A stretch of DNA of 32,000 bases from Kineococcus radiotolerans SRS30216 = ATCC BAA-149 (GCF_000017305.1 NC_009664.2:2490001-2522000); one strand, 5' to 3'. Numbered from the stretch's first letter, positions 8,524 to 26,743 are shown. Notes: generated by a model from the sequence alone, not told the origin. A program made the numbers and translations.

Positions 8524-10049
<1,526 letters not shown>

Positions 10050-10647: not shown

Positions 10648-13799
<3,152 letters not shown>

Positions 13800-13994: not shown

Positions 13995-14117
13995 GTGGTC
14001 CGGTGGTCATAGCGGTGGGGAAACGCCCGGTCTCATTCCGAACCCGGAAGCTAAGCCCACCAGCGCCGATGGTACTGCTCGGGAGACTGGGTGGGAGAGT
14101 AGGTCACCGCCGGCCAC
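13995..14117 (+). rRNA. rrf: 5S ribosomal RNA
   Basis: GTGGTCCGGTGGTCATAGCGGTGGGGAAACGCCCGGTCTCATTCCGAACCCGGAAGCTAAGCCCACCAGCGCCGATGGTACTG...GAGAGTAGGTCACCGCCGGCCAC. The terminal helix pairs 5' GTGGTCCGG with 3' CCGGCCAC. Ends are within about 3 nt. Confidence 0.9.
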
Positions 14118-19571: not shown

Positions 19572-20131
19572 CAGTGGTCCTCCGCCCGAGCCGCCGGCTG
19601 GGGACTGATCGTGGGGATCTCGCCGGTCTGCAGCAGGGCGCGCAGCCGGTAGAGCACGGTGAACGCGGGGGCGCCGGTGGGGACGTCCAGCCGCAGCGTC
19701 GCCTCGGTGCCCATGTCGCGCGGGGCGGTGCGGGTGCGCAGCGACACCAGGGCGTCGGCCGGGACGGCCCCGGCCTCGGGGGCCCCGCCCTCGGTGTCCT
19801 GCTCGACGCGCTCGACGGCTTCGGCGGGCCCGCCGCGGAGGAAGTCCACCCCGCCGGGCGTCACCGACAGGCGGGTGGGCACGCCGTCGGCGCCCTCGCC
19901 GAGGGTCCAGGTGAACTCCCCGGGCGCCGGGGACGTCACGGCGCCGACCTCGCCGAGCAGGCGGGAGAGCACCGCGGGGTCCTGGAAGGCCGAGAGCACC
20001 TCGGCGGGGGGACGGTCGATGGTCAGCGTCTGCGGGGAGCGGTCGCCGGCCCCTCCGCGGCCCCCGTGGTGCAGGGCGTGCGGGAGGACCTTCGCGGCCG
20101 CGTCGAGCAGACGGCGGGACGGGTTCGTCAC
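19571..20131 (-). CDS. SRPBCC (cyclase/dehydrase-like) family protein, divergent
   Basis: The start is refined to GTG 20131, in frame with the track ORF, with GGAG 6 nt upstream. The C-terminal YRLRALLQTGEIPT resembles the ...FKQL.E.GEIPT tail I recall for actinobacterial SRPBCC proteins that sit next to Zn-dehydrogenases. Its stop overlaps the dehydrogenase ATG by 1 nt. The family call is tentative. Confidence 0.45.
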   Translation of the reverse strand: MTNPSRRLLDAAAKVLPHALHHGGRGGAGDRSPQTLTIDRPPAEVLSAFQDPAVLSRLLGEVGAVTSPAPGEFTWTLGEGADGVPTRLSVTPGGVDFLRGGPAEAVERVEQDTEGGAPEAGAVPADALVSLRTRTAPRDMGTEATLRLDVPTGAPAFTVLYRLRALLQTGEIPTISPQPAARAEDH

Positions 20132-20322
20132 CTTGGCTCCGGGGTGTGGGTTCCAGGCGCGGCGGGGGCCTGCACCGTTCCGCAGGCTACGACCCGCCAC
20201 CGGGTCCGGCACCTCGCGACCGCGGCCCGCCCGGGCCCTCGTCGGTGCGCCCCGGAGGTGCTCCGCGGCGCCCGGGGACCTCGGTGGTGGTCGTCGCGCC
20301 CGGGGGATGACACCCTGGCGGG

Positions 20323-21543
20323 GTGGCAGCAGCGGACCGGCCCCCCGTCAGTGACTCCTACGAGCTGGGGGAGCGTGCGCTGGGCGACCTGCGCGGCGCC
20401 TTCGCGACGTGGCTCGACGAGAACGTCGAGGTCGACGACGAGGTCGGCGCCGGCGCCGTCGTCGAGGCGCTGACCGTGGGGGCGGGGGGCCTGCTCACCG
20501 TGCGGCCCGGCGCCGTCGTGACCCGGCTGACCCCCGTCGACGTCGAGGCCCTCACCGGCCAGGTCGTCCCGGCCATGGTCGCCGACACCGGCACCCCGGA
20601 GCCGGCGGAGATGCAGGAGGACCTGGAGGCCATCTGGTACCAGTTCCTCGCCTTCCTCGGCGAGACGGGGCGCTGGACGGGTTCCGCGGGCGACCTGGAG
20701 ACCTGCCTCACCCTCCTCCAGGGGGAGCCGCCGGAGCTGGCGGAGGTCTTCGCCGAGGCCGCCGAGGACGTCGACGAGGGCGAGGAGGACGCGACGATCC
20801 TCGCCTCCTTCCCGGTCCGGGCCGCCCGGGCCGTGCTCGAGCACGTCGGGGAGGGGCTGGCCGTCCCCGACGACGCCGAGCTCGCCCCGGACTCGGTGAC
20901 CGCGGTCCTCGCCGCCTTCGAGCACCCGATCCCCATCACCGCCGACCAGGACGGGCAGCCGCAGGACCTGGAGGACGTCCCCTGGCTGCGCCAGGTCGTG
21001 CTGACGATGCTCGACCTGGACCTGCTGGACGGCGAGGACGAGACGCTGCTCGTCCCGGGCGCGGAGGCGGAGCACTGGCTGGAGCCGACGCCGGAGCCGC
21101 GGGAGCTGCGGCGCCTGCTGGTGGGCCGGTTCGTCCTCGACGACCCGGGGACCCTCGACGGCGGCTTCTCCATCACCGAGGCGGTGCTGCCGACCGTGCT
21201 GGCCTCGGCCGCCGCGGGCCGGCCCTTCGACGACGCGGCGCTGGACGACCTCGTCGCCAACGCCGACGTCCTCGGCCCGGCCGCCGGGGTCGCGGTGGAG
21301 GAGCTGCGGGAACGGCTCTCCGACCTCGCCGTCCTCGGGATCGTCAGCGGGTCCGCCCCGTGGACGGTCGCGCGCGGCTACTGGCCGGCCCTCGCGGCCG
21401 CCGCCGCGGAGGAGGGCGACGAGGACCCCCTGGGCGACCTGTTCGGCGAGGGCGAACCGCACTGGCTGGAGAACGTCATGGGGCAGCTCGGCGTGGGCGA
21501 CGACCAGATGCAGCAGATCCGCAACATCCTCGGCGGGCGCTGA
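20323..21543 (+). CDS. hypothetical, strongly acidic protein (406 aa)
   Basis: Long ORF with consistent G/C third positions. D/E-rich runs occur throughout (AEDVDEGEEDA, DLDLLDGEDE, EEGDEDPLGDLFGEGE). No family recognised. Confidence 0.6.
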   Translation: MAAADRPPVSDSYELGERALGDLRGAFATWLDENVEVDDEVGAGAVVEALTVGAGGLLTVRPGAVVTRLTPVDVEALTGQVVPAMVADTGTPEPAEMQEDLEAIWYQFLAFLGETGRWTGSAGDLETCLTLLQGEPPELAEVFAEAAEDVDEGEEDATILASFPVRAARAVLEHVGEGLAVPDDAELAPDSVTAVLAAFEHPIPITADQDGQPQDLEDVPWLRQVVLTMLDLDLLDGEDETLLVPGAEAEHWLEPTPEPRELRRLLVGRFVLDDPGTLDGGFSITEAVLPTVLASAAAGRPFDDAALDDLVANADVLGPAAGVAVEELRERLSDLAVLGIVSGSAPWTVARGYWPALAAAAAEEGDEDPLGDLFGEGEPHWLENVMGQLGVGDDQMQQIRNILGGR

Positions 21544-24482: not shown

Positions 24483-24566
24483 ACCCCCTCCGGAGCCCCG
24501 CCCGCGCCACCGCGGCGCGACCCTCCCGGTGACCGTGCGTCCCTGTGGACGGACTCCGCCGCCCCC

Positions 24567-24590
24567 GCCGGAACCGGGTTAGGTTCCGGC
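24567..24590 (+). terminator. hairpin between the MFS gene and the toxin-like gene (terminator or insulator candidate)
   Basis: Perfect 9-bp stem GCCGGAACC / GGTTCCGGC with the 6-nt loop GGGTTA. It lies 85 nt after the MFS stop and ends a few nt before the G-rich SD of the next gene. Confidence 0.35.
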
Positions 24591-24609
24591 GACCGGGAGG
24601 GGGGTCCGC

Positions 24610-25866
24610 GTGGACGAGTTGTCGACGTCGTCGCCGGCGGCGGCCGACGCCGCGGCGCTCACCGCGCGCGCGACCGCCCGCGACGCCACCGCCGTCCGCG
24701 ACCGCGTGGACGTCGCGGTCGCGGCGCTGGAGGGCTGGTACGGCCCCGCCCGGGACGGTTTCTCCGCCCGCGTCTCGCAGGTGCGGGACGAGCTCGACGC
24801 GCTGTCGTCGACCGCGGCGGCCGGGGCGGCGCTGATCGAGGAGCACGCCCGGCGGCTGTCGATGCTGCGCGCGAAGCTGGCGGGGATCGACGCGGAGACC
24901 GCCCGGCTGCAGCGGCGGGTGGACGCCGGCGTCGTCGACCTCGCGGCCTGGCAGGGGGACTGGGCGCAGCTCGAGCGCTGGCAGGACAGCCGGCACCGGG
25001 TGCTGGCGGAGTTCGACCAGGCCACCGAGGAGTTCGCGGCCCGGTTGTTCGCGGTGCTGGACCAGGTCCCGCACCGGCCCCGGCGCCTGGGGGAGCACGT
25101 CGACGACGCCGCGGCGACGGTGGCCGCGTCGGCCGGGGACGCGGCGTTCCTCGCGCTGGGCTGGACCGAGGACGGCCCCGGCTGGCGGGCGGCCTGGCAG
25201 CAGGTGCCGGCCGCCGCGGTGGACGCGGCCACCCACCCCGTGGCCACCCTCGCCGACGCGGTCGCCTGGGACGACTGGACGCAGGGCCGCTACGGCGCGG
25301 GCGCGGCCACGCTGGGGATGGCCGCCGTCGGCCGGGGGATCGGGCGGGGGATCGGGCGGGGCGCTCCGCCGGGCGTGGCGCGCCCGGCGGGACGCCGGTG
25401 GGCGCGCCACCTCGACGCGCGGGGGAACCCGCTCCCGCAGTCGCTGGAGGACCTGCTGGCGGGGGTGGACCTGGAGCGCAGCGAGGTGTTCCCCTCCGCG
25501 CACACGCTGAGCCGGCACGTGGAGGTGGATGATGAGTTCCTGCGGAACCGCCTCAGGACCGGTGAGGTGGAGGGCGGTGCCGTGCGCCGGGCCCCGGACA
25601 CCGTCTCGCGGTGGAAGGACCGGGAGACGGCCGAGGAGGTCGTCACCGCGGCGTTGCGGACCCGCCGGGCCGGCGTCGAGGCCGCGGCGGGCACGGGGGT
25701 GCGCGACGTCCGGGTGGAGGCACCGGCCCCCGCGGACAGCGGGACGATCTGGACGAGGAGCAGCGGTGGCGAAGCGGTCCGCAGGAACCCCTCGAGGGTG
25801 GTCGTGGTCCTGACGCGCGCGGACGACGGGTCGTGGTTCGTGCGCACGTCCTACCTGGAGGTGTGA
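24610..25866 (+). CDS. polymorphic-toxin-like protein: WXG100-like N-terminal helical domain plus C-terminal RNase-A-like (CdiA-CT Y. kristensenii type) toxin domain
   Basis: GTG start with GGGAGGGGGG 5 nt upstream. WXG motif EGWYGPARDGF (W at 24736-24738). C-terminal 123 aa (25495-25863): AHTLSRHVEVDDEFLRNRL...SRWKDRETAEEVVTAAL...RVVVVLTRADDGSWFVRTSYLEV. Domain calls are by motif recollection only. Confidence 0.6.
   Translation: MDELSTSSPAAADAAALTARATARDATAVRDRVDVAVAALEGWYGPARDGFSARVSQVRDELDALSSTAAAGAALIEEHARRLSMLRAKLAGIDAETARLQRRVDAGVVDLAAWQGDWAQLERWQDSRHRVLAEFDQATEEFAARLFAVLDQVPHRPRRLGEHVDDAAATVAASAGDAAFLALGWTEDGPGWRAAWQQVPAAAVDAATHPVATLADAVAWDDWTQGRYGAGAATLGMAAVGRGIGRGIGRGAPPGVARPAGRRWARHLDARGNPLPQSLEDLLAGVDLERSEVFPSAHTLSRHVEVDDEFLRNRLRTGEVEGGAVRRAPDTVSRWKDRETAEEVVTAALRTRRAGVEAAAGTGVRDVRVEAPAPADSGTIWTRSSGGEAVRRNPSRVVVVLTRADDGSWFVRTSYLEV
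25333..25361 (+). repeat. 12-bp tandem repeat (about 2.4 copies) encoding GRGIGRGIGRG in the toxin linker
   Basis: CGGGGGATCGGG (25333-25344), CGGGGGATCGGG (25345-25356), then CGGGG. It is in frame and lies between the N-terminal region and the C-terminal toxin domain. Confidence 0.8.
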
Positions 25867-25867
25867 C

Positions 25868-26743
25868 GTGGGGATCGTGACCTCACCCGTGGCCCACGCC
25901 TACGGCGACGGCGACCCGCGGTTGTGCGCGCGCGACGACCTGGAGTGGGTCCTCACCCACCAGGCCGTCGACCCCGCCCGCGAGCGCGACGCCTGGCGGG
26001 AGGTCCTCCGGGCCGCCCGGGCGGGCGACTACGCGCACGTGGTGCGCACCGCGGGCCGCGTCAACCGGGCCGAACCGCCCGAGGGGAACTCGTGGTCCCG
26101 CTGGGCGCAGTGGGTGGACCTGCGGCTGTCGGAACTGGCCGACGACCCCTCCCGGGTCGTGGACCTCCCCCGCGAGGACGAGCCGTGGCGGCTGCGGGAG
26201 GGGGTCCTGGACCCCGCCGCGCGCGACGTCGTCCAGCGCGCCCTGGCCGCGACGCCGGTGCCGGCGGGGGACTCCCGGCGCGACCACGTCGTCGTCGAAA
26301 CCCCCGCGCCCGTCGGGCTCGCCGTGCGCCTGGACCGCACCACGGGCGACGTCGCGCAGGTCGCGACCGCCCGGCTGGGGGTCGTGCTGGAACGGACCGA
26401 CCGGGTCCGCGTCCTCGGGGTGCACGCCGCGGACGCGGTGGAGGACCCGCGCACGGCGGGGTGGCGGGAGCGGTGGCCGAGCCTGGCCTCCGCCCTGGGG
26501 GGCTGGTTCAGCCAGTCGGGGCTGGGGCGGTACGAGCCGCAGGCGGCGCAGGCGGCCATGCTGCGGCAGGAGAGCGACGAGCGCCTCGAGCGCGTCGCCG
26601 CCGAGGCGGCGGAACTGCTGACCCTCGGCGACGAGGACGTGCGCGCGGTCGTCGTGGCGTTCGGGTGCTGCGTCGAACCGTCCTACCTGCGCTCCTGGCT
26701 GGGGTGGATGGTCTGGCGCATCGGCTACTTCGACTGGAAGTGA
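25868..26743 (+). CDS. putative immunity protein: unknown ~200-aa N-terminal domain plus C-terminal CdiI-like ('CDI system immunity protein') domain
   Basis: The GTG starts 1 nt after the toxin TGA, and GGAGG lies inside the toxin's 3' end, 7 nt upstream. G/C third-position bias runs along the whole ORF. The last ~90 aa are SLASALGGWFSQSG...RVAAEAAELLTLGDED...FGCCVEPSYLRSWLGWMVWRIGYFDW. These resemble the small immunity family I recall with consensus ..LLGAYFHQDW....EI..LL.....LGCYY.P.....WL. Confidence 0.5.
   Translation: MGIVTSPVAHAYGDGDPRLCARDDLEWVLTHQAVDPARERDAWREVLRAARAGDYAHVVRTAGRVNRAEPPEGNSWSRWAQWVDLRLSELADDPSRVVDLPREDEPWRLREGVLDPAARDVVQRALAATPVPAGDSRRDHVVVETPAPVGLAVRLDRTTGDVAQVATARLGVVLERTDRVRVLGVHAADAVEDPRTAGWRERWPSLASALGGWFSQSGLGRYEPQAAQAAMLRQESDERLERVAAEAAELLTLGDEDVRAVVVAFGCCVEPSYLRSWLGWMVWRIGYFDWK

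Follow-up and report, generated by a model that had tools for sequence, protein, structure and literature searches.

A predicted RNase A-like toxin-immunity gene pair of Kineococcus with a WXG-like N-terminus and a toxin-like domain in the immunity protein

The gene pair considered here, a toxin gene (open reading frame (ORF) A) and the partner gene directly behind it (ORF B), lies in a 32-kb stretch of the chromosome of Kineococcus radiotolerans SRS30216 (hereafter the window), and its closest described counterpart is the CdiA-CT/CdiI pair of Yersinia kristensenii (Ykris; PDB 5E3E; PF18431 and PF18593; PMC5435912). The two toxins share a fold (template modelling (TM) score 0.82) and a His-Arg-Thr-Tyr set of residues, and the Y. 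kristensenii CdiI, likewise encoded directly downstream, has the same immunity fold as the Kineococcus partner (TM 0.71). The systems differ in delivery, for which Y. kristensenii has a CdiA of more than 3000 aa exported by CdiB and Kineococcus a WXG-type N-terminus of 295 residues within a Gram-positive protein of 418 aa. They also differ in the immunity protein, which is a stand-alone 98-aa CdiI in Y. kristensenii, whereas the 291-aa Kineococcus partner carries two extra domains, one of them a predicted dead copy of the toxin domain, and in sequence the two pairs are only ~20% identical. We read the Kineococcus pair as a translationally coupled toxin-immunity operon whose toxin would be exported by an ESX-type system and act on neighbouring cells, and put the probability of this reading at roughly 60%. 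Batot et al. 2017 (PMC5435912) had already drawn attention, on bioinformatic grounds, to the combination of WXG and RNase A-like domains. What is new, and worth experimental follow-up, is the predicted dead toxin-domain copy in the immunity protein, a core-like locus with accelerated divergence, and a promoter motif found family-wide.

Toxins associated with type VII secretion systems (T7SS) provide a second set of comparisons. The WXG-type polymorphic toxins of Actinobacteria (Zhang et al. 2012, PMC3482391; PF21725) and the LXG toxins of Firmicutes (TelA-C, EsaD, YxiD) resemble the Kineococcus family in starting with a helical WxG-type domain, ending in a toxin and being followed by an immunity gene; relatives of the Kineococcus pair also share small helical partner genes upstream. 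Unlike in those systems, the N-terminal region of the Kineococcus toxin is nearly dedicated to one toxin domain (35/45), the pair is single-copy, syntenic and core-like in the genus without orphan cassettes, and the toxin reaches no Pfam threshold for WXG100, LXG or T7SS_signal. Mycobacterial EspA/EspC and PE/PPE ESX pairs (PF10824, PF18879) show a bipartite arrangement that is shared by four loci of relatives (L004, L017, L024 and L025; L numbers denote family loci in other genomes). In the Kineococcus family, however, the C-terminal part of the larger partner is a nuclease toxin, the small partner is missing from the locus in the K. radiotolerans clade, and there are no ESX core genes next to the pair. 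CpnT(TNT)/IFT of Mycobacterium tuberculosis is likewise an actinobacterial toxin with ESX-dependent export and a cytoplasmic immunity factor, but it is an NAD+ glycohydrolase with another N-terminal domain and a host-directed role, and its immunity protein has no toxin-like domain. Almost all characterised T7SS-associated antibacterial toxins come from Firmicutes (LXG); those of Actinobacteria are represented mostly by domain catalogues. The family described here offers a compact actinobacterial test case, with two or three genes, one conserved site and clear catalytic residues to mutate. Its fixed locus, combined with divergence 2-4-fold faster than that of the neighbouring genes, means that toxin-immunity co-evolution could be seen without the confounding effect of cassette exchange.

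Toxin and immunity domains of the pair

An original prediction, made from the DNA alone, had proposed an RNase A-like C-terminus for ORF A and a CdiI-type domain at the end of the downstream ORF; profile and fold searches bear out the former, and the latter holds more firmly by fold than by sequence. The toxin C-terminus, which begins SAHTLSRHVEVDDEFLRNRL and ends ...SWFVRTSYLEV, matches the bacterial CdiA-CT RNase A domain in Pfam (PF18431) with a score of 47.3 bits (curated cutoff 27; E = 4e-12), residues 297-415 covering profile positions 1-112 of 113. In an AlphaFold (AF2) model built from 20 homologs, where this domain has a predicted local distance difference test (pLDDT) score of ~90, the best Foldseek matches are 5e3e_B and 5e3e_D (TM 0.82, root-mean-square deviation (rmsd) 2.7, probability 1.00; E = 2.6e-6 for 5e3e_B). 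A profile of 34 diverse family members likewise retrieved 5e3e_B from the PDB at E = 4.7e-11; phmmer searches of the PDB with the single toxin or partner sequence returned only noise, and profiles were required. H303 and R314 are invariant in the family alignment (34/34 each), while T413 is kept in 31/34 and position 415 is Tyr or Phe in 29/34. The corresponding four residues of CdiA-CT(Ykris) are important for its RNase activity by mutagenesis, and Tyr/Phe alternation at the Tyr278-type position has been described for homologs (PMC5435912), the same pattern as at position 415 here. Because the catalytic residues are kept, fold and profile both match, and the Tyr/Phe pattern agrees with that described, the toxin C-terminus is predicted to be an active, metal-independent RNase.

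For the partner, the sequence signal is weaker. PF18593 (CdiI_2) matches the last ~90 residues of ORF B at 23.7 bits, under the cutoff of 26.7; the same sub-threshold match is found in 8 of 11 close orthologs, and partners of distant family members reach 27.6-42.4 bits at ~aa 220-306. The AlphaFold model of ORF B (pLDDT 84.7, predicted TM score (pTM) 0.77) has as its best Foldseek match among 350,542 PDB chains 5e3e_A (TM 0.71, rmsd 2.5 Å over 94 columns, probability 1.00, E = 0.07), which is the CdiI in the same crystal complex as the toxin-matching chain B. Since two independent models match the two chains of one complex, the modelling provides strong evidence that ORF A and ORF B form a genuine toxin-immunity pair of the Ykris type. 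In the producer cell, the two matching folds suggest, the CdiI_2 domain would cap the toxin active site in a 5E3E-like manner. A profile of the 11 close partner orthologs found nothing in the PDB, where the fold search succeeded, and Pfam scans at E ≤ 1 did not bear out the UniRef label 'DUF4253' given to the partner.

The two ORFs are clearly coding, since G+C content at third codon positions (GC3) is 0.98 for both, compared with 0.72 for the window. ORF B is 100% identical to Krad_4352, the NCBI name of the ORF A product is already 'RNase A-like domain-containing protein', and homology search returned 20 full-length toxin homologs. The toxin stop codon (TGA, 25864-25866) is followed by a single base and then by the partner GTG at 25868. 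As the original prediction had noted, the Shine-Dalgarno sequence of the partner lies inside the toxin gene, and with this internal site and the 1-nt gap the two genes are, as read from the sequence, translationally coupled. The partner start is itself ambiguous, with GTG 25868 giving 291 aa (GenBank Krad_4352) and GTG 25877 giving 288 aa (later RefSeq); ortholog N-termini differ in length and their alignment does not decide between the two. The coupling is tight with either start. In every examined locus of the family, a partner of 290-340 aa lies directly downstream of the toxin.

The original prediction overlooked what is predicted to be a dead toxin-domain copy within the 200 residues preceding the CdiI domain. 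Partners in three distant loci (L023, L027 and L025) match PF18431 above its cutoff (30-31.5 bits vs 27), with the match limited to profile positions ~23-113 and located just before CdiI_2, and a 23-member partner alignment links these distant partners with the Kineococcus ones. Aligned by hhalign, the partner family and the toxin family are related at 96.8% probability (E = 2.3e-10), pairing partner residues 108-187 with toxin residues 329-416, which take in everything from the first strand of the RNase domain onwards, at ~19% identity; this value was obtained with broad alignments, used instead of narrow, shallow ones that gave 3%. The order of secondary-structure elements also agrees between the partner middle domain and the toxin domain in the two AlphaFold models. 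The segment bearing His175 and Arg186 has no counterpart in any partner, and the Thr/Tyr positions read T-x-Y in distant partners and G184/H186 in K. radiotolerans. We predict from these alignments that partner aa 106-190 represent a catalytically dead, truncated copy of the toxin RNase domain (hereafter the pseudo-domain). A word-indexed homology search with the partner family added almost nothing, the helical domain ahead of the pseudo-domain (aa 1-105) has no match in Pfam, NCBIfam, PDB or PADLOC, and we found no description of an inactive toxin domain within an immunity protein in a literature coverage that was incomplete.

The three-domain partner is kept in all 23 examined cases, from Kineococcus genomes and from metagenome-assembled genomes (MAGs) labelled Kineosporiaceae, Jiangellales and Actinomycetota. 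We considered and rejected gene conversion between the pseudo-domain and the toxin of the same locus: the pseudo-domain has no preferential similarity to its own toxin, which points to an old duplication rather than to ongoing conversion. The same observation, together with the low similarity to the toxin domain and a place among the fastest-evolving segments (48% mean identity), is what would be expected of an evolutionary fossil, in which an old orphan piece of toxin, joined in frame to the immunity gene, would now be no more than a spacer or folding scaffold. Orphan truncated toxin and immunity modules are well known in contact-dependent inhibition (CDI) and Rhs loci, which adds to the case for a fossil. 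Retention of the architecture across Kineococcus and distant MAGs, the family-wide invariance of G150 and the compact, confident partner model argue instead for a folded, selected domain, and we regard a fossil as possible but somewhat doubtful.

A functional alternative, which is our preferred hypothesis for the role of the pseudo-domain although we consider it rather doubtful as well, is that the partner is a single-chain mimic of the toxin-immunity complex. The dead RNase A-like domain, tethered in cis, would sit as a placeholder on the binding surface of CdiI_2, the true toxin would displace this weaker ligand, and the decoy would then help to strip the immunity domain from the toxin at the secretion machine, aiding its release for export. 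The catalytic helix absent from the pseudo-domain forms part of the 5E3E interface (PMC5435912), so that pseudo-domain and CdiI_2 would be expected to bind each other in cis less strongly than the toxin binds CdiI_2; a hint that the domains are packed comes from the high pTM of the partner model. If true, such an arrangement would represent a previously undescribed regulation of immunity-toxin exchange, built from a duplicated toxin domain and accompanied by a conserved promoter element of its own (CTGTGGAC) and by a WxG/YxxxD-E co-substrate signal of ESX type. More generally, a dead toxin copy fused to an immunity domain bears on how tightly bound immunity proteins leave toxins before export.

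N-terminal region and route of export

The stretch EGWYGPARDGF, on which the original prediction had based a WXG100/ESAT-6-like N-terminus, is present in ORF A, and every one of the 34 family members, with identities as low as 22%, keeps its W43 and G45. In the AF2 toxin model, helices span residues 9-40, 46-105 and 111-150, with the WxG in the turn between the first two (pLDDT there 50-70). A profile of the first 155 toxin residues matches an ESAT-6-like structure (12fa_A, E = 0.005) and Staphylococcus aureus EsxA (E = 0.03) in the PDB, end to end, W-x-G-x-A on W-x-G-x-A and with low compositional bias. An exhaustive search with the N-terminal profile reaches T7SS_signal (PF21725) proteins at E = 4e-5 to 6e-4, and hhalign comparison with PF21725 proteins gives probabilities of 80% (E = 1.4e-5) and 90.6% (E = 1.3e-6) with the WxG in register. 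Other RNase-bearing family members have sub-threshold WXG100, EspA_EspE and T7SS_signal matches, near-threshold for EspA_EspE in some (26.5 bits vs 27). The proposed N-terminus stands as regards its fold geometry and its invariant WxG and falls short as regards the Pfam threshold; the profile comparisons suggest a link to PF21725.

ESX substrates carry a composite secretion signal, with YxxxD/E on one partner and WxG on the other. Directly upstream of the toxin in three MAG loci (L004, L024 and L025) and in K. glutinatus (L017), we found a gene for an EspC-like protein of 91-106 aa; all four proteins match the EspC family PF10824 (best 25 bits vs a cutoff of 23.5), and a Y-x-x-x-D/E near the C-terminus is invariant in the four. 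Because the WxG is on the toxin and the YxxxD/E on the upstream EspC-like protein in relatives, the family resembles a pair of ESX-type co-substrates, the larger of which bears a C-terminal toxin. Judging from homology and from the gene context seen in relatives, the toxin would be exported via an ESX-type T7SS that recognises the WxG hairpin, with the WxG in relatives pairing with the small co-substrate that carries YxxxD/E. Once exported, the toxin would degrade RNA in neighbouring cells that have no matching partner. T7SS export is a reasonable inference for the family and a tentative one for K. radiotolerans itself.

Several observations weigh against this reading. The WXG100 structure matches are marginal and interleaved with coiled-coil noise, namely high-bias, multi-stretch matches to tropomyosin. 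Pfam returned no match of the K. radiotolerans toxin to WXG100, LXG or T7SS_signal at E ≤ 1, and a Foldseek search with its N-terminal region gave only non-significant matches to EspB and BAR-domain proteins. The EspC-like small gene is absent from the locus in the K. radiotolerans clade, neither the window nor the ±10 kb covered around the related loci holds a T7SS gene, and a literature search linking Kineococcus to T7SS, ESAT-6 or EccC found nothing relevant. To these are added the sub-threshold CdiI_2 match of ORF B and the scant variation of the pair between strains (see below). A 1313-aa ORF beside the toxin in L027 had the size of EccC and proved to be a DUF4011/AAA helicase-type protein.

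Some of the same observations would suit a non-exported, intracellular module akin to toxin-antitoxin (TA) systems, in which the partner would restrain the RNase until its release under stress or phage attack, leading to growth arrest or abortive infection, and the WXG-like N-terminus would be a relic or have another role, e.g. oligomerisation. Such a module would account for a fixed chromosomal position amid housekeeping genes in at least 18 species, for the lack of secretion genes nearby (window and ±10 kb of relatives), for the loss of the EspC-like co-substrate gene from the locus in the K. radiotolerans clade, and for a pair that is nearly invariant within the species (two strains) and as tightly coupled in translation as type II TA pairs; the tethered pseudo-toxin domain could be a sensor or regulator. 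It is hard to reconcile, however, with a WxG kept in 34/34 members and a 295-residue N-terminal part as well conserved as the nuclease part, neither of which is readily explained for a cytoplasmic TA toxin, and with the probable homology by hhalign of that N-terminus to T7SS_signal proteins. The pair matches no PADLOC defence model, its toxin-first gene order and protein sizes are atypical for type II TA, and the partner lacks the DNA-binding domain typical of antitoxins, with no helix-turn-helix, ribbon-helix-helix or similar domain in either protein in Pfam and NCBIfam. Taken together, these points make an intracellular module unlikely, and we retain the exported toxin-immunity operon as the preferred reading.

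Between the helical hairpin and the RNase domain, the original prediction saw a long Ala/Trp-rich linker. The region is there (aa 151-295) but is more than a linker. Orthologs are more alike in it than in any other segment of the toxin (mean identity 61%), and P210 is unchanged in 34/34 sequences. It has no family match, and AF2 pLDDT is below 50 over residues 154-262. The region is probably an unrecognised functional module, perhaps one for entry or membrane interaction. A Gly/Ala-rich hydrophobic stretch lies at aa 226-252, and a tandem GRGI repeat (VGRGIGRGIGRGA) at window positions 25327-25365 has one unit fewer in a second K. radiotolerans strain, a 4-aa deletion that makes it a length-variable repeat.

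Distribution and divergence of the family

A profile of toxin residues 1-290 was run against all of 1.84 billion representative proteins and returned only 44 clusters, almost all of 390-450 aa. With the window protein included, 35 of 45 scanned sequences carry the PF18431 RNase domain; the others are fragments, coiled-coil noise or distant T7SS_signal proteins. The family occurs as one copy per genome in at least 18 Kineococcus species and is also present in a few related actinobacterial MAGs (one genome per species scanned), a count that rests on a single peptide pattern, HT[LI]xRHV[DE]VD, such that absence from a genome is uninformative. In most Kineococcus genomes the pair occupies the same site, right after a LysR regulator and major facilitator superfamily (MFS) transporter gene pair. 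No orphan cassettes follow it, and a convergent gene begins 40 nt past the partner stop. Two K. radiotolerans strains have toxins 97% and partners 98% identical. Compared across the same loci, identity to the window ortholog is 83-92% for LysR, 74-85% for MFS, 41-58% for the toxin and 34-52% for the partner, and this divergence is shared by all three parts of the toxin and all three of the partner.

These patterns fit vertical inheritance with rapid co-divergence of toxin and immunity protein between species, not cassette swapping. The label 'polymorphic toxin' with swappable C-termini, as used in the original prediction, therefore does not describe the family, whose architecture is fixed and whose RNase domain, genomic site and copy number are as given above. 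One trait of polymorphic toxins is nonetheless present, namely divergence accelerated over the genomic background (toxin 41-58%, LysR 83-92%). The original prediction had also named core-like conservation in genomes without a T7SS as an argument against itself; of this, the conservation is what we observe.

Strain-level diversification is the hallmark of competition toxins according to Batot et al. 2017 (PMC5435912), and the little variation seen within K. radiotolerans (two strains) runs counter to a competition role. Batot et al. used the same argument, low strain-level variation, for RNase A-like lipoproteins of the Bacillus cereus group (NF041883; PMC5435912), which are likewise conserved and accompanied by a probable immunity protein and which illustrate that not every member of the fold is a competition toxin. 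By analogy, the Kineococcus toxin could be an exported RNase that is no interbacterial weapon, scavenging nucleotides from extracellular RNA or acting on biofilm or eukaryotic RNA, with the partner serving self-protection before export only; a core-like pair that is 97-98% identical between strains would be in keeping with this. The lipoproteins are, however, Sec/lipobox-anchored, whereas the Kineococcus toxin has neither signal peptide nor lipobox, and its match to NF041883 is negligible (12 bits vs a cutoff of 200). Moreover, between species the toxin and partner diverge 2-4 times more than the flanking genes, which is not expected of a scavenging enzyme, and the partner is no slower to diverge than the toxin, a sign of possible interface co-evolution. 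On balance, a non-weapon RNase appears quite improbable, and a toxin aimed at neighbouring cells remains our preferred reading.

On a Jiangellales MAG contig, L026:1638-2600 holds a second, degraded family copy, with the WXG domain and central region followed by a frameshift and then, in a different frame, by a partner-type pseudo-RNase segment; the junction appears to have arisen by deletion between the toxin RNase domain and the homologous pseudo-domain of the partner. With L028 the same MAG has a third locus, which makes the family multi-copy there, unlike in Kineococcus. L011 (JBPBQU010000176.1), labelled 'MAG: Janthinobacterium lividum', contains a full-length family member at 45% identity; given its 69% GC and Kineococcus-like neighbours, this is most likely a mis-binned actinobacterial contig.

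Promoter motif, coordinates and neighbourhood

Upstream of the toxin gene, the motif CTGTGGAC is invariant in 10/10 aligned Kineococcus upstream regions, within flanking intergenic DNA that is poorly conserved. It is present as a single copy in the window, and in ~22 of 26 loci, among them loci from other orders and MAGs with ~30% protein identity, an exact same-strand copy stands just upstream of the operon's first gene. Its position at about -45 suggests a transcription-factor site. A TAnnnT-type hexamer follows at a fixed ~29 nt past the motif in most loci. Since the start codon comes ~7 nt past this hexamer in L012, L015, L023, L026, L004 and L025, the sequences suggest leaderless transcripts in many loci; the K. 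radiotolerans clade has instead a ~24-nt spacer and a Shine-Dalgarno sequence. Scans for consensus sigma-70 promoters and intrinsic terminators found nothing. Coordinates of these and the other features are collected in Table 1.

Table 1. Positions of the gene pair, its domains and residues, and associated elements, counted from the first nucleotide of the window
Feature	Position	Strand	Basis or remark
Toxin gene (ORF A)	24610-25866	+	418 aa, GTG start; WP_012085884.1
WXG100/T7SS_signal-like helical hairpin and third helix, toxin aa 1-150	24610-25059	+	AF2, profiles, hhalign
WxG (W43-Y-G45)	24736-24744	+	first turn of hairpin
Conserved central region, toxin aa 151-295	25060-25494	+	RPRRxGEHVDDA, GWxxDxxGW, HPV, GRYG, GRGI repeat, GVDLxRSE
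RNase A-like nuclease domain, toxin aa 296-418	25495-25863	+	PF18431, fold match, profile match to PDB
Predicted catalytic H303	25516-25518	+	aligns with His175 of CdiA-CT(Ykris)
Predicted catalytic R314	25549-25551	+	aligns with Arg186 of CdiA-CT(Ykris)
Predicted catalytic T413	25846-25848	+	aligns with Thr276 of CdiA-CT(Ykris)
Predicted catalytic Y415	25852-25854	+	aligns with Tyr278 of CdiA-CT(Ykris)
GGAGG Shine-Dalgarno sequence of partner gene	25857-25861	+	inside toxin coding sequence; read from sequence
Partner/immunity gene (ORF B)	25868-26743	+	291 aa; Krad_4352
Helical N-terminal domain, partner aa 1-105	25868-26182	+	AF2 helices 7-92
Truncated, predicted inactive RNase A-like paralog (pseudo-toxin domain), partner aa 106-190	26183-26437	+	hhalign, PF18431 in orthologs
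CdiI_2-type immunity domain, partner aa 191-291	26438-26740	+	PF18593 sub-threshold; fold match 5e3e_A
CTGTGGAC motif, putative transcription-factor site	24543-24550	+	~45 nt upstream of presumed transcription start
TAGGTT, candidate -10 hexamer (TAnnnT type)	24580-24585	+	inferred from conservation
Shine-Dalgarno-like GGGAGGGGGG of toxin gene	24595-24604	+	read from sequence; GGAGG-type element aligned in clade loci
rRNA operon	16S 8525-10043, 23S 10648-13799, 5S 13999-14115		~10 kb upstream of pair

Further positions of the motif are L001:9934, L012:9920/9936/9952, L023:3389, L024:8728, L025:97, L026:7012 and 1638, and L004:220. Three tandem copies are thus present in L012, L019 and L021 have an extra inverted copy, and the same promoter layout precedes the degraded toxin paralog of the Jiangellales MAG. 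In two Kineococcus genomes (L005, 534-1523, and L008, 501-~1480), ~9.5 kb upstream of the toxin, CTGTGGAC - 29 nt - TACGGT stands ahead of a gene for a 306-aa protein that is unrelated to the toxin and has no Pfam family and no counterpart in the window; this gene may be a second member of the same regulon. A long perfect palindrome with the motif in each arm (CTGTGGAC...GTCCACAG) lies at L010:1339-1398, upstream of a homolog of a 406-aa gene of the window (20323-21543). The toxin gene itself starts with a sequence (GTGGACGAG) similar to the motif (GTGGACG). The DNA separating the MFS stop from the toxin start holds a perfect inverted repeat of 10 nt (CGCCGGAACC N6 GGTTCCGGCG) at 24566-24591, which overlaps the candidate -10 hexamer; considered as a conserved hairpin, it was rejected, being not conserved in other species or loci, and may be a species-specific MFS terminator or operator.

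The neighbourhood is housekeeping-like and, across its 32 kb, free of secretion-system genes, as the original prediction had described it. Directly upstream of the pair are the LysR regulator and MFS transporter genes; downstream come genes for an adenosine deaminase, which is the convergent gene mentioned above, an alpha/beta hydrolase and an aldo-keto reductase. The remaining genes include two ATP-binding cassette transporter genes, a PdxA-like fusion, a DeoR regulator, hydrolases and a complete rRNA operon whose spacer contains no tRNA. Two coding genes of the window belong to no Pfam family, the 406-aa gene (GC3 0.98) and a 213-aa gene at 19574-20212 (GC3 0.94); the 406-aa protein is 72-77% identical across Kineococcus species.

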